DNA of 64,000 nucleotides, from assembly GCA_028281385.1 (NCBI GenBank), contig JANQJY010000098.1:11180-75179 (forward strand), given 5' to 3'. Made by a program: the position numbers and the translations under genes. This DNA is from Rickettsiales bacterium (GTDB lineage Bacteria > Pseudomonadota > Alphaproteobacteria > Rickettsiales > UBA3002). The first letter of the stretch is position 1. Every line of letters starts with the position of its first letter. A model generated the notes under the pieces. That model searched no databases and had not been told where the DNA came from. It was given only the letters and a program-made list of their open reading frames with translations. Below, one piece after another: positions 14,225 through 56,152 of the stretch.

Positions 14225-16466
14225 AAATATCCGAAACTGTACCATAATGCAACACATGATCCACGGTGGCATTGGTTATCTGGCGTTCAATGCCTTCCGG
14301 CTGCGTTGGTTTGCTTTTCATTTCTTTCACTCCGTCTATGCCTTGTTCTTTGATTTTCTGAGCGGCGTCTGACAATTTTTCTATTTCCGCTTTCGTCATG
14401 CCCATCTGCTTCAGTCGGTCGTCACCAAGACTGACAAGCCCCATGATAGCATCCAGTAAATACTGTTCATATTGCGCTTTGGTTTTCTCGCGAATCGCCG
14501 TAATTTCCTTTTTCTTCAGACCTGCCGATTCCAGAATACTGTTCGGAAAAAATGATGCGTATACCGCTTTTTCCTCTCCTTCCATTGCATTCAGAGCATC
14601 ACGCAACTGATCCTTGCTGAAGGCGGCATCACCGAAATAACGCGACTCATCGACATGTATCTTTTCTTTTACTTTTTCTGCCAGACGTGCAAGCTGACGT
14701 CTAACCACTTCCTCGCTGGCAATCGATTTTCCATCCATCCTGATGATATGACGGGTCCCTACCAAATGAATCAGTTGCAATGTACCTATCTCCCCATCGC
14801 GTAGTGCTTTGGCAATCAACTCAGACACTTTATAAAGTTTTTCATGCAACCGTTTGCCGATCTTATTATTGGGGTTGCAGTCTTGTTCATGCTGCTGGAA
14901 TATCTGTGCAATATAGGTTTCAAGTGTCACTTCATTTTTATTGTCTTTGCGGTCGACATTCATCTGTGGCGGTAGTTTGTAGCGTTCCAGTGATGGATCA
15001 TCTTCTATTTGTCCTTTCAGATACAAAATCATATCCAGCGCAGTGACGGGCTGTGTCACTTTTGTGCGGTTACTATTGAACTGATTGGCAAACATACTCA
15101 CGACAAAAGACGCAGCTGGTACAGCAAAATTCATCTTATTTTCCGATGGCAGATACTCCGGCACATCGGATGTTTGCTTCCCGACTTCTTCTGCCAGTCC
15201 GGTGAGTTCTTTTTGCGCCTGCTCGTAGGATTTTTCTCTGCTTAAGAAGCCTTCCGCCTTGCTGTGCAATTCTTTTGCCCGCGCGAGGATTTTCTCCTGC
15301 TGCATTTTAATCGCATCCATGCTGTTGCCTGTTTTGGCCGTAATCTCTTCGAGTTTTTCACGCTGGAATGCATCAGCGCCAAGCGCGCCTGCGCGATGGT
15401 TCATTCTAAGTGCGTTATAGACAAATATCGGCAGTCTCTGGAATAGATTGATGAAATTATGACCACGTTGCGTGTTCAGATCATAATGGATTTTGCGCCG
15501 CGCATTATAAATCACTTCATTATCATCTTTGCGTACACGCATCAGCGACAGATAGCCATGCTGTTTTTCGCCTTTAATATCATCGAGAATCGGCGAAACA
15601 TTCTTTGCCAGCCTTTGCATATTCTGCTGATATCTTTTTTCTGTTTGCCACATCGCATTGATATCGACCCAGTTGGTCACTCCGAACAAGGCCGTATACG
15701 CCGTTGCCAGTGCGGTTATGTGACGGTGGGTGGCGTGCATACCGGTGGTTTTGAGCACCTCCTCAGTCATACCATAGGTTTTCTTGCCTATCCAGTTACC
15801 GACGCCCAGCGCTGCCAGGCTATACATCATCGACAGGCCCGCCGCATATTCACGCTTTATACCGACCAATCCGAAAAGCGAGACTTCCTTGCTTTCTTCA
15901 TCGACGACCATGCCCGGCAGTTCTTTGAGTTTATCATCGGTCATATGTTCGCCGAAACTCTGTGCCTGACTGCCAAACTGCTGGAACAGATTTTTCATCG
16001 TATCGTTTACCGGAAGCGTGTCCGCCGCACTGCCCGCCAACTTCGCCATGGCCGCACCGGCGGCATTCATATCGCCGCCCTGGAAAGCACCCTGTAGTTG
16101 CTGCGCCTGCGCCATGGCCTGCTGTCCTTGTGCCATCATATTCGCGGCATCGCCCATACCGTTCGCTTTCATCTGTGCCTGGGTAAATGCCGCCATCTGC
16201 TCCGGCGAGGCATTATGCATGCTGTTCATCATCGCGTTGATCTTCTCAGGCGATTGCGCAAGCGTATCCGCCACCGTACCGACACTTTCGGCATTCACCA
16301 CGCTTGACACAGTATCTTTCGTATCCCTGGCGGCGGCTTCCAGTGACTCACTCATTTCCTTCACGGCTTCATCATCTGTTTCTTTTTTTGCCATAGTCTC
16401 TTTCTTTTTCGCCTTCACTTTGCTCCTGTGCCTGAGCGGTCGCGTTTGCGACATGACATCCGACAA
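14202..16466 (-). CDS. hypothetical large protein (754 aa; alternative start at 16394)
   Basis: Long ORF; the first 24 codons are encoded by a family-A repeat, so ATG 16394 (MAKKETDD..) may be the real start; box promoter at 16519..16562. Confidence 0.6.
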   Translation of the reverse strand: MSDVMSQTRPLRHRSKVKAKKKETMAKKETDDEAVKEMSESLEAAARDTKDTVSSVVNAESVGTVADTLAQSPEKINAMMNSMHNASPEQMAAFTQAQMKANGMGDAANMMAQGQQAMAQAQQLQGAFQGGDMNAAGAAMAKLAGSAADTLPVNDTMKNLFQQFGSQAQSFGEHMTDDKLKELPGMVVDEESKEVSLFGLVGIKREYAAGLSMMYSLAALGVGNWIGKKTYGMTEEVLKTTGMHATHRHITALATAYTALFGVTNWVDINAMWQTEKRYQQNMQRLAKNVSPILDDIKGEKQHGYLSLMRVRKDDNEVIYNARRKIHYDLNTQRGHNFINLFQRLPIFVYNALRMNHRAGALGADAFQREKLEEITAKTGNSMDAIKMQQEKILARAKELHSKAEGFLSREKSYEQAQKELTGLAEEVGKQTSDVPEYLPSENKMNFAVPAASFVVSMFANQFNSNRTKVTQPVTALDMILYLKGQIEDDPSLERYKLPPQMNVDRKDNKNEVTLETYIAQIFQQHEQDCNPNNKIGKRLHEKLYKVSELIAKALRDGEIGTLQLIHLVGTRHIIRMDGKSIASEEVVRRQLARLAEKVKEKIHVDESRYFGDAAFSKDQLRDALNAMEGEEKAVYASFFPNSILESAGLKKKEITAIREKTKAQYEQYLLDAIMGLVSLGDDRLKQMGMTKAEIEKLSDAAQKIKEQGIDGVKEMKSKPTQPEGIERQITNATVDHVLHYGTVSDILELGIRE

Positions 16467-16497
16467 TGGATCAAGTGGCAGAGCGAAAAGCGATAAA
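16434..16497 (+). repeat. family-A element (long-loop variant)
   Basis: gagcggtcgcgtttgcg..atccgacaatggat..aagtggcagagcgaaaagcg. Confidence 0.75.
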
Positions 16498-16518
16498 TAT
16501 TACTCCAGTTCACCTTAT

Positions 16519-16562
16519 ACTATAGCAATCAAACGATTAGACGCGTGTGACAATTGTGTGAA
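16519..16562 (-). promoter_or_regulatory. box promoter n (ttcacacaattgtcacac, 20-nt spacer, tatagt)
   Basis: Box at 16545..16562, -10 at 16519..16524; drives 14202..16466 through a family-A element. Confidence 0.6.
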
Positions 16563-16610
16563 ATGCTGCAGGGGTGAAATGGTGATGCCGTCACAACCAT
16601 TGCATGACTT

Positions 16611-16654
16611 TTCATGAAACTGTCACACTGTAGATCACCTCACAGCGGTATACT
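16611..16654 (+). promoter_or_regulatory. box promoter c (ttcatgaaactgtcacac, 20-nt spacer, tatact)
   Basis: Box at 16611..16628, -10 at 16649..16654; upstream of 16708..17373. Confidence 0.65.
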
Positions 16655-16707: not shown

Positions 16708-17373
16708 GTGGAAGATCAGAATACAGCAAGCCATGCAGACCGTGTAACGCATAATCTGCATCGTTCCCGGGCACGTGAATATCTCACATCGCAAATCGCA
16801 GCAGCAGCTGTGGCGATGGGTGCCGTGTGGCTTGGCCGTAACATAGCGCCCAAGGCCATGCAAAAAGCCGATAAAGCTATTGCCGACTATCTGGCACCTC
16901 ACATGCACGGAGAATCTGCTGCCTACATACAGAATTATGCGCGCCGCACTTTGAATTACACGACCATGCTAACCGGCGGTCTTATGACTACTGTTACCGG
17001 ACAAACGATTCAGGCCCGTCGTCGGCGTAGCGGCAAGGAACATGCCGATGACATCACCATATCACGCGATATTACACGCGTATTAACCGGTTGGAGCATC
17101 GGTGCATTTGGCGCCGTCGCGGCGCTGAATATTGCCGAACGTTATGGCCGCAAAGGCAGTGCCAAGGCCGTTACCGACATCCTTGACCGTGCGGAAAAAA
17201 TGCTCGATACACATCTCCTGCATGGTGCGGAATATGTGAAAGGCAATAAAATCTCCGAAGGGCTGGTTGCCAATGCCGTGATGGTTGCCGGCGCTACACC
17301 TGTCAGCATCGCAGCACAACAATTATATGATTCGCTCCGCTCCCATCCGGCCTATGAAAAGATTGAGCGGTAA
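16708..17373 (+). CDS. hypothetical membrane protein (221 aa)
   Basis: GTG-start ORF with several hydrophobic segments; box promoter at 16611..16654. Confidence 0.5.
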   Translation: MEDQNTASHADRVTHNLHRSRAREYLTSQIAAAAVAMGAVWLGRNIAPKAMQKADKAIADYLAPHMHGESAAYIQNYARRTLNYTTMLTGGLMTTVTGQTIQARRRRSGKEHADDITISRDITRVLTGWSIGAFGAVAALNIAERYGRKGSAKAVTDILDRAEKMLDTHLLHGAEYVKGNKISEGLVANAVMVAGATPVSIAAQQLYDSLRSHPAYEKIER

Positions 17374-17386
17374 TGTTTTTGTGTTT

Positions 17387-17446
17387 GAGCGGTCGCGTTT
17401 GCGGAATGCCGACTAGGCGTTACGCAAGTGGCGGAGCGAAAACGAA
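17387..17446 (+). repeat. family-A element (long-loop variant)
   Basis: gagcggtcgcgtttgcgg aatgccgactaggcgtt acgcaagtggcggagcgaaaacg. Confidence 0.8.
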
Positions 17447-17456
17447 TCATATGTTT

Positions 17457-17517
17457 GAGCGGTCGCATTTGTGAAATAACGACCAGCTATTGAGCAAGTG
17501 GCGGAGTGAAAACGAAT
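17457..17517 (+). repeat. family-A element (long-loop variant)
   Basis: gagcggtcgcatttgtga aataacgaccagctatt gagcaagtggcggagtgaaaacg. Confidence 0.8.
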
Positions 17518-17533
17518 GAATTGTAACAAAACC

Positions 17534-17578
17534 TTCACACAACTGGCAGCCATAAATAGCTAAAATGCTAGGTATATA
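17534..17578 (+). promoter_or_regulatory. box promoter d (ttcacacaactggcagcc, 21-nt spacer, tatata)
   Basis: Box at 17534..17551; upstream of 17688..18857, with a family-A element in the leader. Confidence 0.5.
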
Positions 17579-17609
17579 AATAAAAGTAGAAATAGTTAAA
17601 ACCGCGCTG

Positions 17610-17673
17610 GAGCGGTCGCGTTTACAAAACATCGACCAGATGTCGAGCAAATGGCGGAGCAACAGCGAAAAAA
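17610..17673 (+). repeat. family-A element (long-loop variant) in a 5' leader
   Basis: gagcggtcgcgtttacaaa acatcgaccagatgt cgagcaaatggcggagcaacagcg. Confidence 0.8.
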
Positions 17674-17687
17674 GTGAGTGGTGTGTT

Positions 17688-18857
17688 ATGGCCATACTTG
17701 ACAGAGCGCAAGAACAAATTGGTGCGGTAGCAAAAAAGGCAGAGAATGCTATCTATGATGGTTTATTCGGAGGCATTTTTAACAAACTGGGTATCGACCT
17801 GGATGCTGAATCTAAAAAATGGACCCAGATTTTCGATATTTTTGGCAAGCGGATAAGCGGTGATACCTCCAAAAGTACAGGCTGGACATGGATGGACAAA
17901 ATCACTGACTTTTTCAAAGGGATCAGCGACTGGATCGGTAAACAGATTTACAACCTCATCGGCAACGAACAGTTCGAAGAGGCCAATCAACTAGGATTTT
18001 CCAGAGTGGATGATCTGCTGAAAAAACCAGCAGCACAGCAGGAAATTGTTAAGGTAACCGGACAAAATAAAGAATTACACTCTGCCGTTACAGAGGCGAC
18101 GCACAAAGCCATCGCTCAAAGCCGAAAAGATCTCACCCATACCATGAGATCACTGGAGAATGTCGGGGCACATGTCAAAGATACAAGCTTTGCCAAAGTA
18201 AAAGAAGCGGTAATGAAACATTATTATAAGGAAGCCACCGGAGGGGAATACCGAGGCGATAATATAGAGGAACATATGCCGCCGGAAATTAAAACTCTGG
18301 CACACAATATTGCGACCTACACCTCTGAAGCCGTAGGTGATGCGTTTCTTACCGCACGCAAAAAAGAAAACCCCGTTAAGCTCGCCGTCATGGATGATCC
18401 AAACCTCACTGCCATGTTTCAAACGGCTAATGCATCGCTTACAAAGCTGCAAGGTACTTTACAGAAATATAACGTTGCCCAGGCTACCATAGATCAGTTT
18501 GGAGCATTAACAGATGAAACACAAGGCTTCACCAAAGCGCAGATGGAAAAGATGCGGAAAATGATCATCGAGGGCAACGTAACACAAGAGGCTATTCTTT
18601 TTCTTAGATCATCGAAAGGGCGAGACAAGCTGATTTCGGAATTTAAAGGCCCAAAAGAAACGGCGTTTGATGCAAAGTTTGAACAGGCAACAAGCATACG
18701 CACTGCCACAATAGGAGGCAACACAACAATGCTGGTGTTATCCGACGGAGACAAAGTGATTGATACCAGCATCAGCATACTAGGAGAGCTGACTGCTACA
18801 GCTGCACTACCGACCGACACAACACATGACGAAACAGCCCACAGAACACCATCATAA
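17688..18857 (+). CDS. hypothetical protein (about 390 aa)
   Basis: ATG 17688 (MAILDRAQEQ..) chosen because upstream codons are repeat-derived; box promoter at 17534..17578. Confidence 0.55.
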   Translation: MAILDRAQEQIGAVAKKAENAIYDGLFGGIFNKLGIDLDAESKKWTQIFDIFGKRISGDTSKSTGWTWMDKITDFFKGISDWIGKQIYNLIGNEQFEEANQLGFSRVDDLLKKPAAQQEIVKVTGQNKELHSAVTEATHKAIAQSRKDLTHTMRSLENVGAHVKDTSFAKVKEAVMKHYYKEATGGEYRGDNIEEHMPPEIKTLAHNIATYTSEAVGDAFLTARKKENPVKLAVMDDPNLTAMFQTANASLTKLQGTLQKYNVAQATIDQFGALTDETQGFTKAQMEKMRKMIIEGNVTQEAILFLRSSKGRDKLISEFKGPKETAFDAKFEQATSIRTATIGGNTTMLVLSDGDKVIDTSISILGELTATAALPTDTTHDETAHRTPS

Positions 18858-18889
18858 CAACCAGACACGGAGGTATCGCATAGCACCCC

Positions 18890-20533
18890 ATGGCCGATGA
18901 TGAAAACAAGATCAAACTTCCACCGAAAGAGGTACAGGCACTGCTACGTCCTATCATGCTTGAGCCGGCAAGTACGGTTGGACAGGGCATCATAGACGCT
19001 ATCAAGCACCGGCAGGCGGTTAGGACACTTGAATCCGAAAAAGACCGCATCGCTCCTGAAAAACGTGATGAATATATGGCAGGATTTCGCCGTCGCGAAA
19101 AAGAAGCCGTCACTGCCCTTGCCGAAGCGATTCTGCTCAATGATAAAAATATACAGCAACAATTAAGCGATGCAGGCATTACTCCGACGGATATTTATCA
19201 TTACCCAAAACTCGAACAAGACTCAGCGAGATATCAGGAAATTCTGGATGATGTCTGGGAAAAAGCGGAAAGAATATACGAGCTTACCGGACGGGGTGAC
19301 AATGTCGAACAGATTTATACCAGCATCAAAGCTGCAATTGATACCGCACAACCAAACACAACATTTGATGGTCTGAGTCCTCTTGATGAATGGGATGAAG
19401 AATTCAAAAAACAGGAAGACAAGCGTGCCGAATTTTTACGGCATATGATCTGGCAGAATCGGGCGCTGTATACCATCGGCCAGACACTGGAAATGCTCGC
19501 TCCACAATCAGAGCCGGAACCGATCGACAAATCTTCCGATCAGATCATCAGTGAAATTACCGGCATCCCGCTTGATGAAGCCGGTAAATTACTGGCTGAA
19601 CCGACGAAGGAAAATATCGAGAAATACGCCAAAGACGGTTCGGCCTATCAATTTTTAGACACGCAGGAGAAAGCAGGAAACATCTCTTTCCCGAGCGAAG
19701 AAGCAAAGCTGGCCTATGCTTCTGCCCTTGGCCGTATCGTCGAGGTTAAAGTCCGTGAAGTTGCAGGTGGCCGGTCGATTCGCGGTGCTGCCGGCTATCT
19801 CTTGATGGGAGGCGGACAGGCCTTCGGTCATCTCAAAGGGCTGTTGGGTGATGCCATCACCGGCGAGGAAAATGCCCTCACACTGGATCAACGCACTAAA
19901 CAGGGCATGGACACATTGACCAGGCAAGTCATGATCAATGTCGAAAAAGAGGTGTGGTGGTCCTTTACTTATGGTCCGAACGACCCAAGCCTGCCGGATG
20001 ATTTGCGGCAGGATTTACGCGCCATCAGCAAAATCTATGGCAGAGGTGTACGTGAAGAATTCCAGAGCCTGGCCTCTGCCTATACCGGCGTGCGAACCGG
20101 GCATATCAAAATGAACGACATGGTCGCTCCGGATAGACAAACCCATGAGGCAGGCATTACACTGCACGCCACATGGGGTGGCCGCATCCACAAGGATGTA
20201 GACTGGATCGCCGATAAAACAGGAGAATTACCACCTGCTGGTGAAAAATGGTGGCAAACTGCCAGCCGCAAATCCGCCATTCGAAAAGCGTCATTGCCGG
20301 GTGGCGTGGATACGTCTATGCGTTTTCGCAATGGTCATAATGCAGCGACTGCTGCAAAACTCCGTCAAGAAAGATATGATGACGTATTCGCACGCTCACT
20401 TGCCCAGCAACATATCGGGAAAGGCCATTATTACTCTGAAGATCCAGATTTTACAGGCACGGTCGACGACATTACCGCACAATTACAAAACGGAGTGTCC
20501 AAACCGGAACTGATTGCTCGTTACATAGGCTAA
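18890..20533 (+). CDS. hypothetical protein (547 aa)
   Basis: Long ORF 32 nt after the previous gene, probably in the same operon. Confidence 0.6.
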   Translation: MADDENKIKLPPKEVQALLRPIMLEPASTVGQGIIDAIKHRQAVRTLESEKDRIAPEKRDEYMAGFRRREKEAVTALAEAILLNDKNIQQQLSDAGITPTDIYHYPKLEQDSARYQEILDDVWEKAERIYELTGRGDNVEQIYTSIKAAIDTAQPNTTFDGLSPLDEWDEEFKKQEDKRAEFLRHMIWQNRALYTIGQTLEMLAPQSEPEPIDKSSDQIISEITGIPLDEAGKLLAEPTKENIEKYAKDGSAYQFLDTQEKAGNISFPSEEAKLAYASALGRIVEVKVREVAGGRSIRGAAGYLLMGGGQAFGHLKGLLGDAITGEENALTLDQRTKQGMDTLTRQVMINVEKEVWWSFTYGPNDPSLPDDLRQDLRAISKIYGRGVREEFQSLASAYTGVRTGHIKMNDMVAPDRQTHEAGITLHATWGGRIHKDVDWIADKTGELPPAGEKWWQTASRKSAIRKASLPGGVDTSMRFRNGHNAATAAKLRQERYDDVFARSLAQQHIGKGHYYSEDPDFTGTVDDITAQLQNGVSKPELIARYIG

Positions 20534-20693
20534 TTCCACCACAATTTCCGCTCCTTTTCTGAAAAAATCGGTAATCTCCCCCACAGATGGTGCAATTTTC
20601 TTTGCAGATGGGGTGTCCTGTCGCCTATAGTAATGGGTGTAAACTATCCTATATTATACGTATATACATAATGTGTGGGGAGTCCGAATCACC

Positions 20694-21146
20694 ATGGGTG
20701 GCAAGATAAAATTTCATCTGATTGCAATTTCCAGTATCGTGCTGGTGATCATGGGAGTGTATTTCCTACAGCAATCGATGAATGCGCCGGAAGAAGTACC
20801 CGATGGCACGCCTGCTGAGGAGCGGCTTATTATCATTGCCCATGCGAACTGGGGGCTTAACTGCAACCGCTATATCGAATATCGCAACAAGCAGAATGCC
20901 CGGAAAGAGGAATTTAAACCCCGTGCACTGATCCAGGAAAACAACATGCTCTCGAAGGTTGCTCAATTCTGCAATGGTAAGAAGGTCTGTGAATTCGTTG
21001 CCGATGACAAAACCTTTGGGACAGAGCGTGTGCAATCCTGTGCCAAGCGGTTTCAGGTGGTGTATCGCTGTTTCGAATATGACCGTCCGTGGGAGATAAA
21101 TGCCAACCCGCGCGAAAAAATTACCATCAACTGTAAAGACAAATAA
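20694..21146 (+). CDS. membrane-anchored protein with SUEL/rhamnose-binding-lectin-like Cys pattern
   Basis: N-terminal TM; ..IIAHANWG..CNGKKVCEFVADDKTFGTERVQSCAKRFQVVYRC resembles the Gal_Lectin consensus (A.YG .. CnGk..C..FG.DPC...K.L.V.Y.C). Confidence 0.45.
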   Translation: MGGKIKFHLIAISSIVLVIMGVYFLQQSMNAPEEVPDGTPAEERLIIIAHANWGLNCNRYIEYRNKQNARKEEFKPRALIQENNMLSKVAQFCNGKKVCEFVADDKTFGTERVQSCAKRFQVVYRCFEYDRPWEINANPREKITINCKDK

Positions 21147-21151
21147 ATGAC

Positions 21152-21964
21152 ATGGAATTTATCGCGCCGTTCCCCTCGCTTTATCTTGCTAAATGGGGGT
21201 TTCTGGCACTGCTATTTGTCGGGATGCTGGTCTATGGCTGGTGGTATAAGCGCTGGCTGCATCGTATTGCGCTAACACACTCCTATGTCGAGCAGAGCCG
21301 ACTGCTGCATCAACAGCTACGCATCCGCCATATGCAATGGGTTGGCACATTGTTTCTAGCATTATCGCTTACCATCTGGGTGGATTATCACCACATGTCG
21401 CTGCCGGAAAGCAAAGAGCGTCATCCTGAGTCCACCGCTGCAACTATAGCAGAAACGGCTGTCAAAGAACCTGTTACCACTGATAGGAATGATGTAACCA
21501 CTTCGGCTTCTCAGAATGGCACTATCCCAAACGTTGAGCTCCAAACACCGGACTCCGAACTCACACCTCCCAGGCTGGACGATCTCAGCGATGATGACAT
21601 CCTCAGCCTGTTTCAACCAACATCCTTGTCGCTGGAAGCATCCGATGGGCTCGACCAGTTAAAAAGCGATGTCGAACAGCTGCTGGTCGCCACCTATATC
21701 TTACGCCATTGCCACATGATCAGCGTCGGCGAGGACACAACGATACATCAGCGGCTATATGCCTATCTCACGTCGCAAAAGCAGGCGATTGAGGCTTTTG
21801 GCACGAATGTGGACGTGTTGGCCGATAATATTGCCGTCGCGGCGCTGGGTACATTTCAGCTGCGTTACCAGGGCCGCCCGTGTGATACACAGCAATTGCC
21901 CTCTCTGACGAGGCAGATGGAAAACTGGCTGAAAAAAACGGAAATTATCGTAAAAAATCCCTGA
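21152..21964 (+). CDS. hypothetical membrane-anchored protein (270 aa)
   Basis: Two N-terminal hydrophobic helices; starts 5 nt after the previous stop. Confidence 0.5.
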   Translation: MEFIAPFPSLYLAKWGFLALLFVGMLVYGWWYKRWLHRIALTHSYVEQSRLLHQQLRIRHMQWVGTLFLALSLTIWVDYHHMSLPESKERHPESTAATIAETAVKEPVTTDRNDVTTSASQNGTIPNVELQTPDSELTPPRLDDLSDDDILSLFQPTSLSLEASDGLDQLKSDVEQLLVATYILRHCHMISVGEDTTIHQRLYAYLTSQKQAIEAFGTNVDVLADNIAVAALGTFQLRYQGRPCDTQQLPSLTRQMENWLKKTEIIVKNP

Positions 21965-22006
21965 ACCGGCGATTTTACACATTTTTTCGTCAAATTCTTC
22001 CGAAAA

Positions 22007-22021
22007 TTAACTGCTTTTTAA
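22007..22021. promoter_or_regulatory. TTAA-N7-TTAA (CtrA-type box candidate)
   Basis: ttaactgctttttaa; about 100 nt upstream of 22122. Confidence 0.3.
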
Positions 22022-22121
22022 GCCGATCTTTGCAATTTGTTAACCTTTTTACGCTATGCTTAAAAATAGAGCACGGATTAACTGTGCCGGTTGAATTATT
22101 AGTAAAAGGCAGGCAAGACAC

Positions 22122-22616
22122 ATGCGCACATTGATGCCCTCATTGCTGTTCGGTTCGCTGACGTTTATGGCCATTATCTGGATAAACGCGAATCACCCCG
22201 AGATGATCGACGGTGTCATGTCATCTCTGCGCAATGAGGCTATTTCCTCACAGTTGCCATCCAACAAGGAAGAGCGGGCCCGCATGGATCGTATCAATGG
22301 TCTGCTGATTTCCGAACGTAACAAAGAAGACTTACGTAACGGCCGTCCATTCTGGGATGCTGCGCCACATATGGTGGAACTGGCGTTCGGCGTCTATGCT
22401 GACGATTCGGTTGTTCGGGTAAAAAACAACACATCATATGAGTTCCAGACCTATAGTTTCGGTGCCGGGGCAGATCCGATAGTAGCGGAATTTCAGAACA
22501 GCAAGCTCGCCTGCATGCATTATCCCAACCAGCAGCAGTCCTTATGCAATGATTCACGTGTCAGCTACTACAAATCGATTCGCGATTTGAGAAAAGGTTA
22601 TCCGTTTAATTTGTAA
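22122..22616 (+). CDS. hypothetical exported protein (164 aa)
   Basis: N-terminal hydrophobic signal or anchor; TTAA-N7-TTAA box about 100 nt upstream. Confidence 0.5.
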   Translation: MRTLMPSLLFGSLTFMAIIWINANHPEMIDGVMSSLRNEAISSQLPSNKEERARMDRINGLLISERNKEDLRNGRPFWDAAPHMVELAFGVYADDSVVRVKNNTSYEFQTYSFGAGADPIVAEFQNSKLACMHYPNQQQSLCNDSRVSYYKSIRDLRKGYPFNL

Positions 22617-22622
22617 GCGTGC

Positions 22623-22643
22623 GAGCGGTCGTGTTTACAGCGG
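22623..22643 (+). repeat. family-A 5' fragment
   Basis: gagcggtcgtgtttacagcgg in the 40-nt gap before the g8 stop. Confidence 0.45.
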
Positions 22644-22656
22644 ATTATAATAGGTT

Positions 22657-23956: not shown

Positions 23957-23993
23957 GGGGGTCTCCTTTTTGTTTTTCGGTGTTTTTTTATTC

Positions 23994-24016
23994 GTCATCC
24001 CGGCGAAAGCCGGGAT
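23994..24016 (+). repeat. GTCATCCCG-type REP-like hairpin
   Basis: gtcatcccggc-gaaa-gccgggat. Confidence 0.55.
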
Positions 24017-26596: not shown

Positions 26597-26662
26597 GGCT
26601 ACATTTTTTTCAGCAATATTTCATATAATTCATTATAGAGAAAAAATCATCTCCTATAAAGT

Positions 26663-26941: not shown

Positions 26942-27030
26942 ATGCCTGTCATGACAAGCATATATGAAAAGAGCAACAAAAAACCAGGGACGCATTGCGT
27001 GATGCAACACGCCCCTGTAGGCAATGGAAG

Positions 27031-29938: not shown

Positions 29939-29941
29939 CCA

Positions 29942-43302: not shown

Positions 43303-43332
43303 ATGGCAGAGTGAAATGCGAAAAAACTAATC

Positions 43333-50520: not shown

Positions 50521-50647
50521 CGGCTTATATCAATCGGATATCTATTTATCCCGAGAAAAATACTTTGCAGCGCAGTATATTAACGGAATTTTTACCTTTT
50601 ATCGCTATACTGAGGAATACAGCCAAAAATAAGAGAAAGACCTGCTC

Positions 50648-51418
50648 ATGCAACGCGACACTCAGGATTTTATTGATATTCTTCAGGGGTTTTTTGATCA
50701 ATATATGGGTTCGGGCGTTCTGTTTCCGGAATTTCAGGAAACCGTGACCGATGCCGCGCTTCAGGTGTTGGGCCATCCGGATGTCGAGCATGTACCCGGC
50801 TATAAGATCACTTCGCTGATGGCCGATATGGTCAATATCGCGGCGAGTATTTCCTCCGATGGCTGGCTGACGAATGACGAAGCACTGGCGCGGCTGGAGT
50901 CGCATCTCGACCTGAGCGGCCCGCTGATTCAGTATTTTCTTGCCGATGCCCGTATCGAGCGCGCACGCTATGAACCGGTCATGTTGACCGAGGACCATAC
51001 AAGCCCGGCCACAGAACGCAATGCGATTCTGAATGAGCGCTTTCACCGGATGATTGACGCACGTCAAACCTACAGTCCGCTGCCACATTCCTTTGTCGAT
51101 GAAATTGCCGAAGCCGCCGAGTTGGCGATCCAGGCAGATGAATTCCGCTATTATCGCTCAGGCCCGATGCTGCAGTTTTTTGCCGATATGATTCAGCAAG
51201 CCGATATGATCGCGGAAGATACCTTCGATGAGGACGAAGGAATACAGCGCCTGCGCCGGATACTCAGTGATAATGGCCGGCTGTGGAAGATTTACCGCGC
51301 CAAATCCGCACGTTTTTCCGCACCGGACGGTGACCCGCTTTATGAAGAGGAATTTGCCAGCAAGGCCAATATGCTCTTCATTCCCGATGCGGACCCCATG
51401 CATCCGACCTTTCATTGA
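50648..51418 (+). CDS. hypothetical protein (256 aa)
   Basis: ORF only. Confidence 0.5.
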   Translation: MQRDTQDFIDILQGFFDQYMGSGVLFPEFQETVTDAALQVLGHPDVEHVPGYKITSLMADMVNIAASISSDGWLTNDEALARLESHLDLSGPLIQYFLADARIERARYEPVMLTEDHTSPATERNAILNERFHRMIDARQTYSPLPHSFVDEIAEAAELAIQADEFRYYRSGPMLQFFADMIQQADMIAEDTFDEDEGIQRLRRILSDNGRLWKIYRAKSARFSAPDGDPLYEEEFASKANMLFIPDADPMHPTFH

Positions 51419-51514: not shown

Positions 51515-51859
51515 CTAGATTCCAGTTTCCCTACTCTTCCACCGCTTGACTGCCCGTTCCATGCGCCGCCAGTCTTCATCCGTCATCTCCGGCACGGTGC
51601 GTTCCGCCGTTGCCTCGACTATTCTGCGCTCTTTTTCCTCCAGCTCCAGCAGCGTTTTCTGCATGGACACCAGTTTGCCCAACACGCTTATCGCACTGTC
51701 CTTACCGAAATAGCGTCTATAGGCTTCCGGCAACTCTTGCGCGTCTGGCTGCGTCATGAACTCTCTTAATGCCTTAATACAGCAAGGAAGCATTCCTCTC
51801 ATACTGTCCACTGTGACACGCATATCATCCGGTGGATGTTTCTGGTCATTTTTGGGCAT
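51515..51859 (-). CDS. hypothetical protein (114 aa)
   Basis: ORF 21 nt downstream of 51881..53299 on the same strand. Confidence 0.4.
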   Translation of the reverse strand: MPKNDQKHPPDDMRVTVDSMRGMLPCCIKALREFMTQPDAQELPEAYRRYFGKDSAISVLGKLVSMQKTLLELEEKERRIVEATAERTVPEMTDEDWRRMERAVKRWKSRETGI

Positions 51860-51880: not shown

Positions 51881-53299
51881 CTAACGTTTCACTCCACCCG
51901 CCCATCGCAGCGGATCCACATATTTCAGCCACCGGGTCAGCAGCCCGTGCTCATCCATCCAGGCGGCATAGTCGCGATACTCCTCATAGCGCATCAAATG
52001 CCGTTCCTCGGTTTTGGCACGCGCATAATAAACCGCATTCACGCACAACAATCCGCCGGCATTCAACAGCATGTTTTCCGGACTGTCATGCATGATAAAC
52101 GGGAAGAACGCCCCCCACCAGAACAGATTCTTGGTCAGATAACCCGGATGTTTTGTTACCCGGAACACGCCACCTGTAATCAATCCACGATAGGTCAGGT
52201 TCGACCAGCGCAGTCCGAATGCCACCGAGGATGAGGCGTGTGCCAGCATCAGCAGCACCAGTGTACTGCCCCATACATAATAGGGCGTACTGCCGGCATC
52301 GATCCAGTGATACCAGGGATGGTTCGTTGCATAATAAATCAGATGACCGAACACCAGCACGTCCCAGAAAGGGGTATAGCACATCACGCACGACACCCAC
52401 CCGCCCCATGTATTATCTGTGGAACGGACATGCGTATCCAACAGCCGGAGGTTAAACAGATAGCCAACGACCACCGGCGTCAGATCGATCAGGAACATCA
52501 GGCTGATCAGATGCAGATACACCGTCAGGAACCGCGCCTCTTCATGCCAGTTATAATCGGCGAGATCGCCCATCATCTGCGCAATGTTAATCAGCATGAT
52601 CGGCAGGAAATAGCCCTTGATGATCCAGGTCCGCGCGTGATGTGCCAACATCGGCCAGTTCATCCTGTGCCGGAGCGGTCGGCTGGGGCCGGAGCGACGG
52701 CGGAAAATATCACGCCGGAGCGGTCGGTCGTGCAGGAGTCGTTGGCTGAGGCTACGACGAATGCGGATAATCAGACCGGAGCGACGGCAGAAAATTCCGT
52801 GCCTAAGCAATAACGCTGTTTCGCGGTAGGCATCCTCCGGCTCACGCATGTTCCCGTCAAGCCAAGCGATATAAAGCAGCGAGACCGGTATCAGATACAG
52901 CGCTCCCGCATATAGCGTCTGGAATGCAAAATCGTAGCGCCAATGGCCATAGAAGGGGATCAGATAATAACAGAATGCCAGTGCCGACAGCGTTGCCAGA
53001 AATCCGATCCATTTCAGGCCGATCCGTCGCCAGTGCCACGGTAGTTTACGCGTGAAGTCCAGCCCTGTTTCTTCGCGTCGGTATACTTTGACCACAGCCA
53101 GATCATATGCGGCCAGCAGTAGGAAATAGATGGCAGGGAACAGCATCCAATAATCCATCGCCACATGTTGATGATAGCGGCAGGTCCAGCCGAACAGCGC
53201 CAGCATTACCACCAGCGTCAGATGGTTCATCCAGATATTCGTGCAGCTTTTCGGGCAATGTTCGGGGGGTGTCATGGTGATGGTTATAACAGCTTGCAT
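51881..53299 (-). CDS. polytopic membrane protein with C-terminal ICMT/PEMT-like methyltransferase motif; in-frame repeat insertion in a loop
   Basis: Many TM helices; ..GGVFRVTKHPGYLTKNLFWWGAFFPF.. resembles the RHPxY-type motif of isoprenylcysteine carboxyl/phospholipid methyltransferases; aa about 165-212 come from family-A units. Confidence 0.6.
   Translation of the reverse strand: MQAVITITMTPPEHCPKSCTNIWMNHLTLVVMLALFGWTCRYHQHVAMDYWMLFPAIYFLLLAAYDLAVVKVYRREETGLDFTRKLPWHWRRIGLKWIGFLATLSALAFCYYLIPFYGHWRYDFAFQTLYAGALYLIPVSLLYIAWLDGNMREPEDAYRETALLLRHGIFCRRSGLIIRIRRSLSQRLLHDRPLRRDIFRRRSGPSRPLRHRMNWPMLAHHARTWIIKGYFLPIMLINIAQMMGDLADYNWHEEARFLTVYLHLISLMFLIDLTPVVVGYLFNLRLLDTHVRSTDNTWGGWVSCVMCYTPFWDVLVFGHLIYYATNHPWYHWIDAGSTPYYVWGSTLVLLMLAHASSSVAFGLRWSNLTYRGLITGGVFRVTKHPGYLTKNLFWWGAFFPFIMHDSPENMLLNAGGLLCVNAVYYARAKTEERHLMRYEEYRDYAAWMDEHGLLTRWLKYVDPLRWAGGVKR
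52664..52805 (+). repeat. family-A short unit plus hairpin unit, read antisense in frame in 51881..53299
   Basis: Translated on the minus strand as ..RRSGLIIRIRRSLSQRLLHDRPLRRDIFRRRSGPSRPLRHR.. Confidence 0.85.
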
Positions 53300-54344: not shown

Positions 54345-54366
54345 TGGATGTATCTTACAGTTTCTT

Positions 54367-55305
54367 ATGAGCCAGGCCCCGATCATGCCTTTTTACACCG
54401 ATGCCTATCTTGCCGACACGCAGCATCTGACGACCGAAGAGCACGGCGCCTACCTGCTGTTGCTGCTGTATAGTTGGCGTAATAACGGCGCGCTACCGCC
54501 CGATGATGACCGTAGATTATCGCGGATTACCCGTCTTAGTCTGAGACGCTGGAAACAGGTCGTCCGCCCGAATCTCGAGATGTTTTTTACTATTTCCGAG
54601 GAGGGGTGGCATCAGAAAAGGTTGCAAAAAACCTGGGCGGACACGCAAGCGAAAATTACCATCAGAAGTACCCGTTATATGCGCGAAAAATCACGCAACT
54701 CACGGAAAAATAATACATCGCCCTCTCCTATCCATAAACCAGACCCATTATCCGATGATGTTTTCCTTCATCATTCTCGAGTGGGCGTTAGTTCGTCTCG
54801 GGAATCTTGTAACCAAATAGCACATGAAATAAGACCTCCGCAAGCGGTTGATGCCACCGCGAGGGTGACAAATACTTCCTCTGCTACCCCCGCGCTTGAT
54901 GCACTCAAACCCGTCCTGTCCGATATCCGTTATTTCACTCCGCGCGGTCGGAAGATTTCGCCCGAGTTGGCACCACAGTTGTGTCAGGCACAAAAGGAGA
55001 TCACCGCCTTGCTAACGCCGATTTCACCCGAAGATAATGACGCACTGGTTGCCAAATTGATGCGCGTCTTTCCGATCTATGGCGCGCCGCAGGAAAAAAT
55101 CGCCCGCGTGCAGGATTACATCGACGCCTTTGCCCTTTACCCGGCCGATCTGCTGCAGCATGCCATGGACGACACCATCGCCACTCATGCATTCAACACA
55201 TTGCCGCGCATTGCCGACATTATTCAGAAAATCACCCCGGCGCTGGAACAACGCCGAAAACAGAAAGACAAAATTGAACGGTTGTTAAAGCAGGTCGATT
55301 CATGA
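54367..55305 (+). CDS. DUF1376 (YdaU-like) domain protein
   Basis: MPFYTDAYLADTQHLTTEEHGAYLLLLLYSWRNNGALPPDD.RL.RI is the DUF1376 N-terminal signature. Confidence 0.7.
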   Translation: MSQAPIMPFYTDAYLADTQHLTTEEHGAYLLLLLYSWRNNGALPPDDDRRLSRITRLSLRRWKQVVRPNLEMFFTISEEGWHQKRLQKTWADTQAKITIRSTRYMREKSRNSRKNNTSPSPIHKPDPLSDDVFLHHSRVGVSSSRESCNQIAHEIRPPQAVDATARVTNTSSATPALDALKPVLSDIRYFTPRGRKISPELAPQLCQAQKEITALLTPISPEDNDALVAKLMRVFPIYGAPQEKIARVQDYIDAFALYPADLLQHAMDDTIATHAFNTLPRIADIIQKITPALEQRRKQKDKIERLLKQVDS

Positions 55306-55423
55306 AAAGGAGCTACTGGGACGATGCGCACCACATCGCCTTTTTTCCATGCTCCTTACTCTTCGTTCTTCCGCATCGCAAAAACACAACCGATCGTAGT
55401 AACGTCATTCAACCAAAGAAGGA

Positions 55424-55972
55424 GTGTTTTACATGCGCAGTTTCCCCACCCGCCGCGGCCGTCCCAAACAAGCAACGTCATCCACCGATCCCGGCACGCC
55501 CGAACTGATCATGAAACGCGCGCATGGTGTTACTGCCGAGCCGATCGATTTGTGTCTGGAGCGTAATATCATTACCGAAGAGCAGCATTGGTGCGGGCTG
55601 CATTTACGCTGGCTATACACTATCCGCTATGGCACACCTAACATATCGGCGCTTAATCTCATGCGCGGTGCGGGCGAGGATATTGCCGAAGACGATCCGG
55701 ACTGGCGCGCCGCTCGCGAAGAAGAGTTGCAGGACGCAGTCGATCTGCTCGCCAGCAAACGTCGCTATGAACCGGTGGCCGGCCTGTGTATCTACAACGA
55801 GCCTGCGCGTTTTCTAAACCGTGAACTGCTGTGCCGTGCCTATAACAGTCAGAGCATCGCTCATACCATCGAGCGTGAAATCGATATTCTCCGCGACGGG
55901 CTCGACCTGCTGGTACATCATTGGGGACGCCTGTGCTCAAGCGATCGGCCAAGGCCGGAGCGAGAGCGATAA
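55424..55972 (+). CDS. hypothetical protein (182 aa); C-terminus and stop supplied by repeat DNA
   Basis: ORF; the last 13 codons lie in a family-A unit. Confidence 0.4.
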   Translation: MFYMRSFPTRRGRPKQATSSTDPGTPELIMKRAHGVTAEPIDLCLERNIITEEQHWCGLHLRWLYTIRYGTPNISALNLMRGAGEDIAEDDPDWRAAREEELQDAVDLLASKRRYEPVAGLCIYNEPARFLNRELLCRAYNSQSIAHTIEREIDILRDGLDLLVHHWGRLCSSDRPRPERER

Positions 55973-56152
55973 AACTAATCGGTAGCGGTTGGGGTGCGCC
56001 TGTGCTTGAGCGGTCGTGTTAGCGCGGAGCAAAAGCAAAAAAATATATCAGAGCGACGGCGAATAAAGTCTGTTCGAGCGGTCGGTTCTGTGCTCAAGTT
56101 ATTGGCTGAGGCCACAACGAGAGCGAATAAAGGTCGAAGCAAGGGCGATAAA
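55930..56152 (+). repeat. array of 3-4 diverged family-A units
   Basis: cctgtgctcaagcgatcggccaaggccggagcgagagcg.. / ..cttgagcggtcgtgttagcgcggagc.. / ..gttcgagcggtcgg..attggctgaggccacaacgagagcg.. Confidence 0.75.

Follow-up and report, generated by a model that had tools for sequence, protein, structure and literature searches.

The window, i.e., the whole stretch of 64,000 nucleotides analysed here, from an uncultured alphaproteobacterium, contains a GTA cluster interrupted by inserted genes and carries about 24 units or remnants of a structured repeat family between positions 11054 and 56151. They make up 2.4% of the window, at a density of approximately one locus per 4 kb across 11-56 kb, and all of them lie on the plus strand. 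The preliminary description had reported more than 20 such units in a single orientation, and this observation was confirmed within the window. The motif GAGCGGTCG occurs 20 times, always on the plus strand, versus 0.54 expected occurrences (0 of 100 shuffles reached 20), and GGAGCGACGGCG, allowing at most one mismatch, occurs 10 times, again always on the plus strand, versus 0.25 expected. When the covariance models R1 and R2 were scored at every window position on both strands, they yielded 20 (E<0.2) and 22 (E<0.05) significant matches, respectively, all of them on the plus strand, and the top minus-strand scores were at noise level (E>=0.57). Counted as independent loci, 13 of 13 are on the plus strand (two-sided binomial p = 2.4e-4), or 9 of 9 when neighbours within 1 kb are merged (p = 0.004). 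At 51557-51654, a doubtful degenerate remnant may have the minus-strand orientation (E=0.6).

Everything described previously about the common ends (5' and 3'), the existence of three core types and the tandem copies was found. The basic unit of 45 nt comprises a CTGTGC leader, a 4-bp outer stem, a GA/GA mismatch, GC/GC, an inner stem, a TGAG loop, and a GGCGGAAAAT tail. The putative transmissible unit, some 39-45 nt long, brings along a leader, a stem and a GAAAA tail of its own, and its subtypes number at least two (A and B). The 87-nt "hairpin core" is a unit of the second subtype nested in the apical loop of a unit of the first, and the 70-nt "long-loop core" carries a different apical module. 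The nesting is documented by the covariance model of the short unit, which matches the inner modules at full length, and by a gap-free alignment (A9) with a mean column identity of 80%; the type B unit is also found alone, at 30639. A composite of 127-132 nt (family D3) recurs in four unrelated contexts. The tandem arrays are head-to-tail, with TRF periods of 45 and 70 nt, and inverted pairs do not occur.

One fold is common to all three unit types, and covariation supports this predicted fold. In the closing stem, 90.9% of the cells are paired versus 25-41% in slid controls, and none of 500 shuffles reached the observed covariation score. The pair 8-37 appears as GC (9), CG (5), UA (4), and AU (1), and the pair 7-38 as CG (8), UA (7), UG (3), and AU (1). 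Among the long-loop units, 89% of the cells are paired and 7 pairs are altered on both sides. In total, at least seven outer-stem variants were observed, each of them still complementary. The pairing of the arms GCGGTCGC and GCGACGGC proposed earlier is not backed by covariation, the backed fold being GCCG-GA-GC-GG-TCGGC...GCCGG-A-GC-GA-CGGC. Beside these freely covarying stems, the unpaired GA/GA dinucleotides are invariant and the TGAG and GACCAG loops are conserved. The units have a G+C content of about 60-70%, and their fold is strand-specific: in the G-rich strand, a T.G wobble is conserved and G.A mismatches occur in tandem. The predicted folding energies are better for the plus than for the minus strand (-10.1/-8.5, -14.3/-11.1, and -19.3/-16.6 kcal/mol).

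The first member, a 72-nt variant unit with a 31-nt apex and the outer stem GCAT/ATGC (11054-11125), lies inside the minus-strand ORF 10919-12250 and was recognized by R2 (33.4 bits, E=2.6e-8), R1 (24.8 bits), its fold, and an exact GAGCGGTCG. This unit was absent from the preliminary list, as were those at 30639-30683 and 43288-43311, and the listed 9296 locus turned out to be a different 121-nt palindrome, undetected by R1 or R2. A 70-nt long-loop unit (16426-16495; R2 73.5 bits; alignment A4) overlaps the predicted 5' end of the minus-strand ORF 14202-16466. Two intergenic long-loop units with GTTT/AAAC stems form a head-to-tail pair with a TRF period of 70 (17379-17448, R2 89.8 bits; 17449-17518, R2 88.2 bits). 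At 17602-17671, another long-loop unit, with GCTG/CAGC (R2 86.3 bits), extends across the start predicted for ORF 17640-18857; covariation supports all three. Between convergent genes, at 22615-22690, there is a degenerate long-loop-like remnant, a doubtful member; of the unit formerly placed at 22623, the exact GAGCGGTCG stands, whereas the covariance match is weak and degenerate (R2 10.4 bits, E=0.93). The stand-alone type B unit of 45 nt (30639-30683; core GAGTTGCTGGCTGAGGCTACAACGA, outer stem GCTC/GAGC) is located between a protease gene and a pentapeptide gene, and matches R1 at full length (25.7 bits, E=2e-4; alignment A9).

Two tandem type A units of 45 nt (34793-34882; R1 69.5 and 56.5 bits; alignment A1) lie inside the minus-strand portal gene (33654-34955), with the antisense peptide SSAVASPSADRSSTGSSALAPASADRSSTKSS. 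In the intergenic DNA upstream of this gene, a composite with a degenerate 3' part (35106-35262; R1 68.1 and 29.4 bits; 127-nt family D3; A9) combines a type A unit (35106-35150) with a nested unit, in which a type A encloses a type B (35169-35213). The plus-strand ORF 36693-39686, which encodes a Pro-rich protein of 997 aa, harbours in frame a composite of a type A and a nested unit with a degenerate 3' arm (38371-38505; R1 66.3 bits; D3; translation) and an array of type A, type A, and nested units (45+45+87 nt; 39052-39228; R1 67.9, 64.9, and 27.7 bits; TRF period 45), as well as a degenerate nested-type unit with the peptide AQESLAKATTDANN (38632-38700; family D4, 79% identity; inner module with 2 mismatches). 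The lone 3' half of a long-loop unit is found at the start of a terminase N-terminal ORF (43288-43311; family D13, 79% identity), and an array of a type A (GCCA/TGGC) and a long-loop unit inside the plus-strand ORF 43451-44344 (43824-43938; R1 67.6, R2 96.6 bits). At 52665-52808 (R1 69.1 and 17.7 bits; alignment A8), a type A unit and a nested one form a composite, behind which another unit starts but is truncated; this stretch is antisense in the minus-strand PEMT/DUF1295-like gene (51881-53299). Finally, a type A unit with GCTC/GAGC (55931-55975; R1 57.2 bits) contributes the 13 final codons plus the stop codon to the plus-strand ORF 55424-55972, and the probably intergenic stretch 56000-56151 holds a degenerate unit (56000-56064) and a nested one (56068-56151, with a type B at 56088-56132), with R1 41.5 and 30.6 bits, R2 38.2 and 19.5 bits, and alignment A9.

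In agreement with the preliminary description, the orientation of the units is independent of the host gene (four loci are in or abut minus-strand genes, four are in plus-strand genes, and five are intergenic), and the four reading frames that it gave (PERSAEAGATA, SSDRPRPERER, SADRSST, and RPLRHR) are present. The comparison with homologues revealed that the GTA portal has about 30 extra residues after the conserved ARLFG motif, absent in 10 homologues (A1), and that about 45 residues are inserted in the PEMT/DUF1295-like membrane protein which 9 homologues do not have (A8). In addition, a 39-nt in-frame insert including the outer stem and the tail was found in the valyl-tRNA synthetase (ValRS) of a Rickettsiales MAG. 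At the level of sequence comparison, the homologue alignments prove the in-frame insertions in these three proteins. The RPE-like behaviour noticed before thus holds, with complete units in frame in conserved proteins and also in intergenic DNA and gene ends. The unit lengths of 39, 45, 87, and 132 nt are multiples of three, and the unit reading is open in five or six frames; the in-gene copies would survive because of these lengths and open frames and of their placement in linkers or loops of the host proteins.

The strand bias is real within the window, where the GC skew is uniform. The plus-strand skew is negative (-0.034 in plus-strand genes and -0.124 in minus-strand genes) and the units are G-rich (+0.21), their G-rich strand being always on the C-rich background strand, which we infer to be the leading-strand template. 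This would place the better-folding strand on that template. Co-orientation and GC skew within 47 kb of one replichore point to a link with replication, and a replication-linked or single-strand insertion mechanism, as suggested earlier, may lie behind the bias. A survival bias would account for the placement on the leading-strand template no less well than an insertion bias.

The core of the family was also detected in single copies on plasmid-like contigs whose relatives lack it, and in Acuticoccus plasmids the site upstream of ardC is empty; the insertion boundary at L019/L021 is ambiguous. The copies from other genomes add the complementary outer stems CCCT/AGGG, GCCT/AGGC, and CAC/GTG, and all three copies are likewise G-rich on the C-rich background strand. 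No units were found in the closest related locus (L001), which has a similarly interrupted GTA cluster; at the protein level, identity to the nearest relatives is no more than about 70%. No Rfam family matched the units and no sequence relative was found in annotated collections. This repeat family is probably new. The mobilising gene envisaged before (RAYT, IS200/IS605 TnpA or other) was not found in the window, where none of the approximately 60 ORFs scanned encodes a transposase, an integrase, an HUH/Y1 enzyme or a reverse transcriptase. The unit flanks showed no visible target-site duplication or conserved target motif, nor a conserved tetranucleotide 5' of the units.

The explanation that we favour, with moderate confidence, is a lineage-restricted, non-autonomous family of REP/RPE-like hairpin repeats that spreads in trans and owes its co-orientation to a link with replication. 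An enzyme encoded outside the window would copy the unit into intergenic DNA, gene ends, genes, the loops of other units, or head-to-tail beside existing ones, and the larger derivatives arise either where the apical loop of one unit holds a second unit (87 nt) or with a different apical module (70 nt). Co-orientation could result from insertion via a single-stranded intermediate at the replication fork, or from preferential loss when the lagging-strand template carries the strong hairpin. This uniform chromosomal direction suggests that the element is selfish and that it spreads or survives in connection with DNA replication.

The same uniform direction, over a uniform GC skew, would also be expected of polar DNA sites recruited by the host, KOPS/Chi-like, where a protein reads the direction of replication for segregation, organisation or repair and co-orientation is selected. 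The invariant GA/GA, the conserved loops and the covarying stems have the pattern of a protein-recognised hairpin, and the density of loci is high. However, known polar motifs have about 8 nt and do not need structured units of 45-87 nt, tandem and nested arrays would be redundant, and conserved proteins are interrupted although cheaper placement was possible. The closest related locus lacks units, and single copies on plasmid-like contigs and in one MAG gene are as expected for a mobile sequence, so we regard such sites as unlikely. Local duplication, slippage or gene conversion of one segment, with neither transposition nor a replication-linked bias, would explain the periodic head-to-tail arrays and the confinement of every copy to 47 kb. 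Neighbouring loci often have a common stem variant (GTTT/AAAC at 17.4 kb; GCTC/GAGC at 34.8-35.2 and 55.9 kb), so that some of the spread is due to local duplication, a process that keeps orientation trivially. However, over 25 kb the GCTC variant alternates with the GCCG variant in an interleaved order, indicating dispersal rather than purely local duplication. The family is structured and interspersed and is not one duplicated gene fragment; its copies lie in at least 13 unrelated contexts with dissimilar flanks, intergenic, in both gene orientations and in four reading frames. Together with the precise in-frame insertions in conserved genes, the core in other organisms and the empty site in relatives, this makes local duplication an improbable account of the whole family.

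A role in RNA, as REP-like stabilisers, attenuators or processing sites whose fold is selected in the transcript, would agree with the stable, covarying stem-loop with G.U-compatible pairs, with the copies at gene ends or leaders (17379-17671, 55931, 16426), and with the fact that REPs are often transcribed and often downstream of genes (PMC3733652). Nevertheless, orientation is set by the chromosome and not by the gene, four loci are antisense to the host gene and would give the weaker complement in the transcript, many copies lie midway through coding sequences, no T-run follows the stem on either strand, and no Rfam family matches, which makes this role very unlikely. Still harder to credit are attC-like recombination sites of an integron/cassette system importing foreign genes into the GTA cluster, since, in spite of structure conserved above sequence, co-oriented copies, a folded strand on the putative leading-strand template as in sedentary integrons (PMC5371416), units at 16426 and 22615 that flank the plus-strand block 16708-22616 at GTA/inserted-gene borders, and the unit at 30639 that adjoins the pentapeptide gene, the window has no integrase, the consensus has no R'/R'' boxes (GTTRRRY/RYYYAAC), the GTA/foreign borders 28442-28574, 29938-29942, 41569-41655, and 42374-42409 have no unit, L001 is interrupted alike without units, and units lie inside conserved genes.

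Considering the new family as a mobile hairpin repeat, its closest analogues are RPE-1 to RPE-10 and the Wolbachia palindromic elements, which share with it the Rickettsiales-type alphaproteobacterial hosts, the palindromic nature and the predicted stem-loops. RPEs are intergenic or fused in frame to genes of conserved proteins, where they occupy exposed or variable regions and do not destroy the gene (PMC2229807, PMC3767692), a behaviour matched here by the portal, the PEMT-like membrane protein and ValRS. However, RPEs are AT-rich and have 105-146 bp, versus a G+C-rich unit of 39-45 nt (70 and 87 nt in its derivatives), and the present family differs in being modular: its G.A mismatches occur in tandem, its units nest in one another, and its arrays run head-to-tail. 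Its copies are also strictly co-oriented, whereas an orientation bias of RPEs is unmentioned in PMC2229807 and PMC3767692.

The GTAG/CGTC REPs are short hairpin repeats as well, and the CGTC group, mostly from Alphaproteobacteria, includes RPE-4 and RPE-6, may occur inside genes and lacks a dedicated transposase (PMC3733652). An identity with these REPs was rejected: there is no conserved terminal GTAG/CGTC tag by the stem, the stem does not start with A/T pairs, and the CCA tail is absent. Moreover, REPs form mainly head-to-head dimers, with negligible head-to-tail ones (PMC3733652), whereas every array here is head-to-tail. IS200/IS605 elements, in which a folded hairpin is recognised on one strand and orientation is tied to replication direction (PMC5027513), their non-autonomous derivatives and REP-RAYT systems probably act similarly, and the present units also lack DDE-type terminal inverted repeats and target duplications. 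They differ in that the window has no Y1/HUH gene and the units no 5' target tetranucleotide, and the active strand of IS608 is the lagging-strand template, the opposite of what the better-folding strand would be here.

In sedentary integrons, the folding strand of attC sites is mostly the leading-strand template, an arrangement that restrains excision and keeps the arrays stable (PMC5371416). The likeness to attC lies in structure conserved above sequence, one folding strand and co-oriented arrays; in attC, the strand that folds is the active one. The difference lies in the missing integrase and R/L boxes, in the units within conserved genes, and in tandems without intervening cassettes. The BOX elements of Streptococcus pneumoniae and the Correia elements of Neisseria (see also PMC2229807) are modular small repeats too, with repeatable modules, strong predicted stem-loops and some ORF-fused copies; in Correia elements, the terminal inverted repeats have 24 bp and there are TA duplications. 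Their hosts and sequences differ from those described here, and, to our knowledge, strict co-orientation has not been described for BOX or Correia elements, whereas it holds for the present family in the window.

The 9-mer GAGCGGTCG occurs 20 times on the two strands of the 64-kb window, against 0.54 occurrences expected, and all 20 lie on the plus strand. Similarly, the 3' motif GGAGCGACGGCG, with at most one mismatch, was found 10 times in the window against 0.25 expected, always on the plus strand. Reading of the copies and the use of repeat finders defined a common 5' end of the family, CTGTGCC-GAGCGGTCG, and a common 3' end, GGAGCGA-CGGCGGAAAAT. About 24 units or remnants have been delimited between 11054 and 56151, adding up to 1,565 bases (2.4% of the window), some standing alone and others forming head-to-tail arrays, whose periods are 45 and 70 nt. 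Covariance models of the 45-nt unit (R1) and of the 70-nt unit (R2) were scored at all positions on both strands, yielding 20 matches for R1 at E<0.2 and 22 for R2 at E<0.05. All these matches are on the plus strand, and no significant minus-strand copy was found by either model across the whole window, the best minus-strand scores being noise (E of at least 0.57). This result confirms the preliminary description, which had placed every copy in plus orientation. Counted as independent loci, 13 of 13 are on the plus strand (p = 2.4e-4), and 9 of 9 when neighbours less than 1 kb apart are merged (p = 0.004). A minus-strand region at 51557-51654, which resembles a tail-leader junction (ACGGCGGAA...CCGTGCCGGAG) and encodes the peptide ATAERTVPEM in ORF 51515-51859, gave weak R1 matches (E = 0.6 and 2.6); it is doubtful and highly degenerate and, if real, would be the sole oppositely oriented copy.

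The list of loci previously proposed stands as far as the existence of the family is concerned, but needs correction at several positions: the locus at 22623 amounts to no more than a weak remnant, two units (11054 and 30639) and one half-unit (43288) had been overlooked, and 9296 does not belong to the family, since it is a 121-nt palindrome of another kind (z = -6.8) that is matched by neither R1 nor R2. This near-perfect palindrome (9290-9410) has a 15-bp terminal inverted repeat (ATCCTTCCTATC...) and contains GGAGCGA; its DNA fold reaches -29.6 kcal/mol, with both strands alike, and it is flanked by the hub gene on one side and a DUF2335 gene on the other. It could be a bidirectional terminator, or else an element of another kind. 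REP-RAYT and IS200/IS605-derived elements insert 3' of a specific tetra- or pentanucleotide target and make no target duplication; around the units of the window, where independent sites are few, neither a target-site duplication nor a conserved flank was seen, and many of the left flanks end in TC or GC.

All unit types share one closing fold, 5'-GCCG-GA-GC-GG-TCGGC-(apex)-GCCGG-A-GC-GA-CGGC-3', which begins with an outer stem of 4 bp, continues with a symmetric internal loop (GA/GA) that could potentially form tandem G.A pairs and with two G-C pairs, and leads through a small asymmetric loop and an inner stem to a variable apex. The computed fold is not the pairing of GCGGTCGC with GCGACGGC that had been suggested before. 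When both arms of 21 units were joined via a dummy linker, standard pairs occupied 90.9% of the cells, compared with 25-41% when the partner was slid by 1-3 columns. In these units, pair 8-37 is GC in 9 cases, CG in 5, UA in 4, and AU in 1, and pair 7-38 is CG in 8, UA in 7, UG in 3, and AU in 1. At least seven outer-stem variants are present in the window, i.e., GCCG/CGGC, GCTC/GAGC, GTTT/AAAC, GCTG/CAGC, GCCA/TGGC, GCAT/ATGC, and GTTC/GGGC, all of them complementary. The observed covariation score of the 21 units was reached by none of 500 shuffles, a control that overstates the significance because the copies share descent; more weight attaches to the slid control and to how many distinct compensated variants there are. 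The five good 70-nt units behave in the same way, with 89% paired cells against 32-50% after sliding, and with 7 of 20 pairs altered on both sides, including the apical stem, which lies under a conserved GACCAG loop and is again flanked by GA/GA. A T.G wobble at pair 15-31 is kept in 19 of the 21 units, and thus the plus strand folds better than its complement in each type (-10.1/-8.5, -14.3/-11.1, and -19.3/-16.6 kcal/mol). A kink-turn or ribozyme reading of the fold was judged unsupported: Rfam 15 gave no match at gathering score, permissive scans of it returned only snoRNA hits at chance level, and we take the loop geometry of the units to be a poor fit to a simple k-turn.

The hairpin core of the preliminary description, which corresponds to the 87-nt form, is not a separate core, since R1 fits the inner parts of those units over its full length (35169-35213, 52728-52772, and 56088-56132). 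In the unit at 39142, the R1 match (39142-39198) runs from the outer leader through the inner core. The inner 45 nt align without gaps to the ordinary short units, with 80% mean column identity, and share with them the CTGTGC leader, the GA...GGCTGAGGCC...CGA core, and the GCGGATAA tail. The full-length inner matches and the gap-free alignment indicate that the 87-nt unit is a type B unit (core GAGTCGTTGGCTGAGGCCACGACGA) nested in the apical loop of a type A unit, these being two subtypes of the 45-nt unit; type B also stands alone at 30639-30683. A composite of 127-132 nt, consisting of type A followed by a nested unit, recurs at 35106, 38371, 39097, and 52665, that is, in four unrelated contexts, which means that it spreads as a block. 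A single nesting event with later spread is suggested by the common insertion point. The 70-nt unit carries another apical module and retains the same stem-GA-stem logic. The lengths of 45, 87, and 132 nt are divisible by three, the 70-nt form being the exception, and the unit is open in five or six of the six reading frames.

The window is an RcGTA-type head-tail cluster encoded on the minus strand, which contains a split terminase (42409-43302 and 41024-41569), portal (33654-34955), protease (29942-30565), capsid (27177-28442), connector and completion genes (22657-23998), DUF2460 (10283-10888), hub (9410-10258), NlpC/P60 (8076-8531), and the GTA_TIM protein (2947-6630). Many unrelated genes break up this cluster, among them genes for RTX proteins, a pentapeptide protein, a lectin, a 997-aa proline-rich protein, an ATP-grasp enzyme, and a toxin-antitoxin pair. 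The latter, a HigB-like toxin with an HTH antitoxin (26279-27010), has the capsid gene on one side and the connector genes on the other. In the terminase, the N-terminal ATPase part (42409-43302, minus) is separated from the C-terminal nuclease part (41024-41569, minus) by an unrelated plus-strand gene (41655-42374). The cluster may be decaying, or it may have been rearranged via gene insertions. Searches with Pfam, NCBIfam, and PHROGs detected no transposase, integrase, HUH/Y1 enzyme, or reverse transcriptase among the approximately 60 window ORFs scanned; genomes with REP-RAYT or IS200/IS605-derived elements have a Y1 (HUH) transposase gene, which the repeats typically flank. The closest portal homologues are 69-73% identical and come from MAGs; a more distant one (P0111, 64% identical) carries the source label Rickettsiales. 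The host can be placed as an alphaproteobacterium whose GTA portal is like those of MAGs with this label. The locus of the closest portal homologue (L001, from GCA_002422205.1) has an equally interrupted GTA cluster with zero units. Its terminase is likewise represented by just a 163-aa Terminase_6C ORF, and at 1582-2830 it has three tandem copies of about 445 bp, each with a 59-aa ORF and a terminator-like hairpin (AAAAACAAACGCCCGCATG...CATGCGGGCGTT), which are not related to the hairpin repeats of the window.

Three other features of the window can be mentioned. Two pairs of conserved non-coding stretches, 72% identical, were found at 16611-16671/62012-62072 (61 nt) and 28485-28527/50564-50606 (43 nt). 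Three of the four copies are directly upstream of plus-strand genes, including those of an RTX protein and a serralysin-like RTX metalloprotease, and the fourth (50564-50606) overlaps the 3' end of ORF 50546-51088 on the minus strand, with an alternative ORF on the plus strand (50648-51418) starting about 40 nt downstream of it; these stretches may be shared promoter or operator sequences. Adjoining the serralysin-like protease, 60673-61914 encodes a protein of 413 aa whose residues 264-337 form a Hint (intein/hedgehog-type) domain. The 997-aa protein (36693-39686), whose C-terminal two thirds are extremely proline-rich (PPPP and APxP runs), has no Pfam match, is host to three separate repeat arrays, and may be secreted or effector-like.

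As proposed earlier, several units lie in frame inside genes, and sequence comparison has shown that these insertions are absent from the homologues of the portal, of a PEMT/DUF1295-like membrane protein, and of a valyl-tRNA synthetase (ValRS) from another genome. The portal has about 30 extra residues (SSAVASPSADRSSTGSSALAPASADRSSTKSS) after the conserved N-terminal ARLFG motif, present in none of 10 homologues, which are two type-A units read antisense. The PEMT/DUF1295-like protein (51881-53299, minus) is matched by more than 1,000 homologues in two stretches, and an alignment with nine of them places an arginine-rich insertion of about 45 residues, the antisense reading of an A+nested composite, between two conserved blocks. 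Copies on the sense strand occur within the 997-aa ORF and within ORF 43451-44344, and ORF 55424-55972 takes its last 13 codons and its stop codon from a unit. Four reading frames are in use, as originally stated, and the orientation of the units is indeed unrelated to that of the host gene, with 4 loci in or abutting minus-strand genes, 4 in plus-strand genes, and 5 intergenic.

A search of genome and metagenome contigs with a 23-nt pattern returned mostly chance matches in high-GC genomes, together with three genuine copies, each on one contig of another genome (L011, L018, and L019), that have 25 of 25 core bases and R1 scores of 56-58 bits. The pattern scan found no copy in viral contigs, BLAST found no match to the core, the 177-nt array, or the long-loop region in annotated plasmids, and a 10-kb segment of the window had no match in phages. 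The genuine copies show that the family is horizontally distributed, yet it is rare in public data.

The copy in L011, a Rickettsiales MAG, lies in frame in the ValRS gene, in a loop of 45 residues that has 5 in the Thermus enzyme. The closest orthologues (72-74% identical) read AIGAPV directly followed by GAHGAQ, and L011 reads PIGAPV[LHERSAEAGASGK]GAHGAQ. The insert is 39 nt long, TTACAC-GAGCGGTCGGCTGAGGCCGGAGCGA-GTG-GAAAA, with ends placed by protein alignment at 72-74% identity, and its sequence shows that its own outer stem (CAC/GTG) and the GAAAA tail are within the insert. Among related MAGs, several ValRS homologues (P0287, P0293, P0312, P0335, P0341, and others) are 1,020-1,240 aa long and contain PF04480/PF18741 endonuclease-like domains, an indication that the same essential gene has received insertions of other kinds in this bacterial group. 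L018 and L019, two plasmid-like contigs (relaxase, RepA, DUF2958, and ArdC) with 62-64% G+C, stem from a single metagenome. Upstream of ardC, L019 and two Acuticoccus plasmids are collinear, save for some 26-31 extra bases in L019 that correspond to the core, the boundary being ambiguous; the search for an empty-site relative of the L018 copy gave only distant DUF2958 genes. The outer stems of L018 and L019 (CCCT/AGGG and GCCT/AGGC) differ again and are still complementary. The idea that the variable outer stem derives from a palindromic target, which arose from comparing L019 with L021, was rejected, since the ValRS insert brings its own stem and tail; in addition, the leader and the tail outside the variable pairs are conserved among the copies of the window.

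The GC skew of the plus strand is negative in 29 of 32 2-kb bins, and the cumulative skew falls across the window, reversing only slightly in three bins. Plus-strand genes (-0.034) and minus-strand genes (-0.124) alike show this negative plus-strand skew, which excludes a coding-strand effect and makes the plus strand the probable leading-strand template. On this strand the units are G-rich (skew +0.21), opposite to the background, and the three copies elsewhere are also G-rich on a C-rich background strand, although their contigs are small and this evidence is weak. IS200/IS605 elements transpose as single strands in a strand-specific manner, with excision and insertion on the lagging-strand template, leading to a genome-wide orientation bias (PMC5027513). 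In sedentary integrons, the folding strand of attC sites is mainly on the leading-strand template, which reduces excision and stabilises large arrays (PMC5371416). Examined for a bias of the IS200/IS605 type, all the copies of the window are co-oriented under negative skew in one replichore segment, and their better-folding strand is on the inferred leading-strand template. This arrangement resembles the attC precedent, and it would resemble the IS200/IS605 one if the C-rich complement were the active strand. Either insertion bias or survival bias would fit this one 47-kb segment.

Taken together, these data fit a family of non-autonomous repeats, small and hairpin-forming, which are copied in trans and which genes can tolerate. 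Purely local duplication accounts for the arrays and for some neighbouring copies, but explains only this part, leaving the interleaved variants, the unrelated flanks, and the copies in other organisms unexplained. A host-selected polar site is less probable: the invariant GA dinucleotides and loops do have the look of a hairpin recognised by a protein, but interrupting conserved proteins is costly, tandem and nested copies are redundant, and the closest related locus (L001) lacks units. A role at the RNA level is also disfavoured, given that orientation is independent of gene direction. The integron-like idea that the units are cassette borders was rejected, since no integrase was found among the window ORFs scanned, the units lack R/L boxes, and L001 has the same gene interruptions with zero units.

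A further and rather unlikely reading, offered as a speculation, would be a strand-specific ssDNA element of an undescribed kind, whose folded hairpin would be recognised by way of the conserved loop and the GA/GA mismatches. Such an element would prefer to insert where DNA is single-stranded, also into the apical loop of a copy already present or on its 3' side, and its polarity with respect to the replication fork would always be the same; its mobiliser would be neither a recognisable RAYT/IS200 TnpA nor an integron integrase. If this reading is true, a complete genome should hold hundreds of copies, with a switch of orientation both at the origin and at the terminus.

To our knowledge, in-frame "selfish" palindromes have hitherto been almost confined to Rickettsia and Wolbachia, and we know of no established mode of spread for them or for the transposase-less CGTC REPs of Alphaproteobacteria. 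RPE-like behaviour is now found in a different, uncultured lineage and on plasmid-like DNA. Three features make a mechanism testable: the very small unit (39-45 nt), whose ends are set by the ValRS empty site through protein alignment; a fold backed by many compensatory changes, with conserved unpaired GA dinucleotides; and the strict head-to-tail co-orientation with nesting in the apical loop. If, across the whole genome, orientation follows the replichores, we would have here a clean natural case of replication-coupled spread or survival of hairpin DNA. There is also a warning for annotation, because the units lengthen conserved proteins by 13-45 residues and give rise to spurious gene starts and ends.

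Among known elements, classical DDE-derived MITEs differ in that the leader CTGTGC and the tail GGCGGAAAAT of our units are not mutual inverted repeats and the units have no flanking direct duplication. Integron attC sites, which go with an IntI integrase and an attI site and have R''/R' boxes (RYYYAAC ... GTTRRRY) with extrahelical bases, differ as well: neither box occurs in the consensus CTGTGCCGGAGCGGTCGGCTGAGGCCGGAGCGACGGCGGAAAAT, and no integrase domain was found in any window ORF scanned. In GTAG/CGTC REPs, one end of the hairpin bears a conserved tetranucleotide (GTAG or CGTC), the stem has 8-9 bp and starts with A/T pairs, the loop has 4-5 nt, and there is a short CCA tail; their dimers are mostly head-to-head (or tail-to-tail) and rarely head-to-tail (PMC3733652). 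In contrast, our units have no GTAG and show CGTC only on the minus strand, across the outer stem and the GA loop, where it varies with the covarying outer stem (alignments A2 and A7); their stem is G/C-rich, with interruptions at GA/GA and GG/A loops, TGAG forms the loop and GGCGGAAAAT the tail, and the arrays are all head to tail, with no inverted copy found in the window. The units are like RPEs in that they are interspersed palindromic repeats with a long stem-loop fold supported by covariation and occur in frame in variable or exposed regions of conserved genes (the portal, the PEMT/DUF1295-like protein, and the L011 ValRS) as well as in intergenic DNA. However, RPEs are 105-146 bp long (PMC2229807), whereas the basic unit here is 45 nt (39 in ValRS), with derivatives of 70 and 87 nt and a largest recurring composite of 132 nt. 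The units have 60-70% G+C, in contrast to the AT-rich Rickettsia, and this base composition would make sequence similarity to RPEs unlikely. We regard the family as the same kind of element as REPs and RPEs but as a member of neither, because it lacks the defining REP features and its unit is far shorter than that of RPEs.
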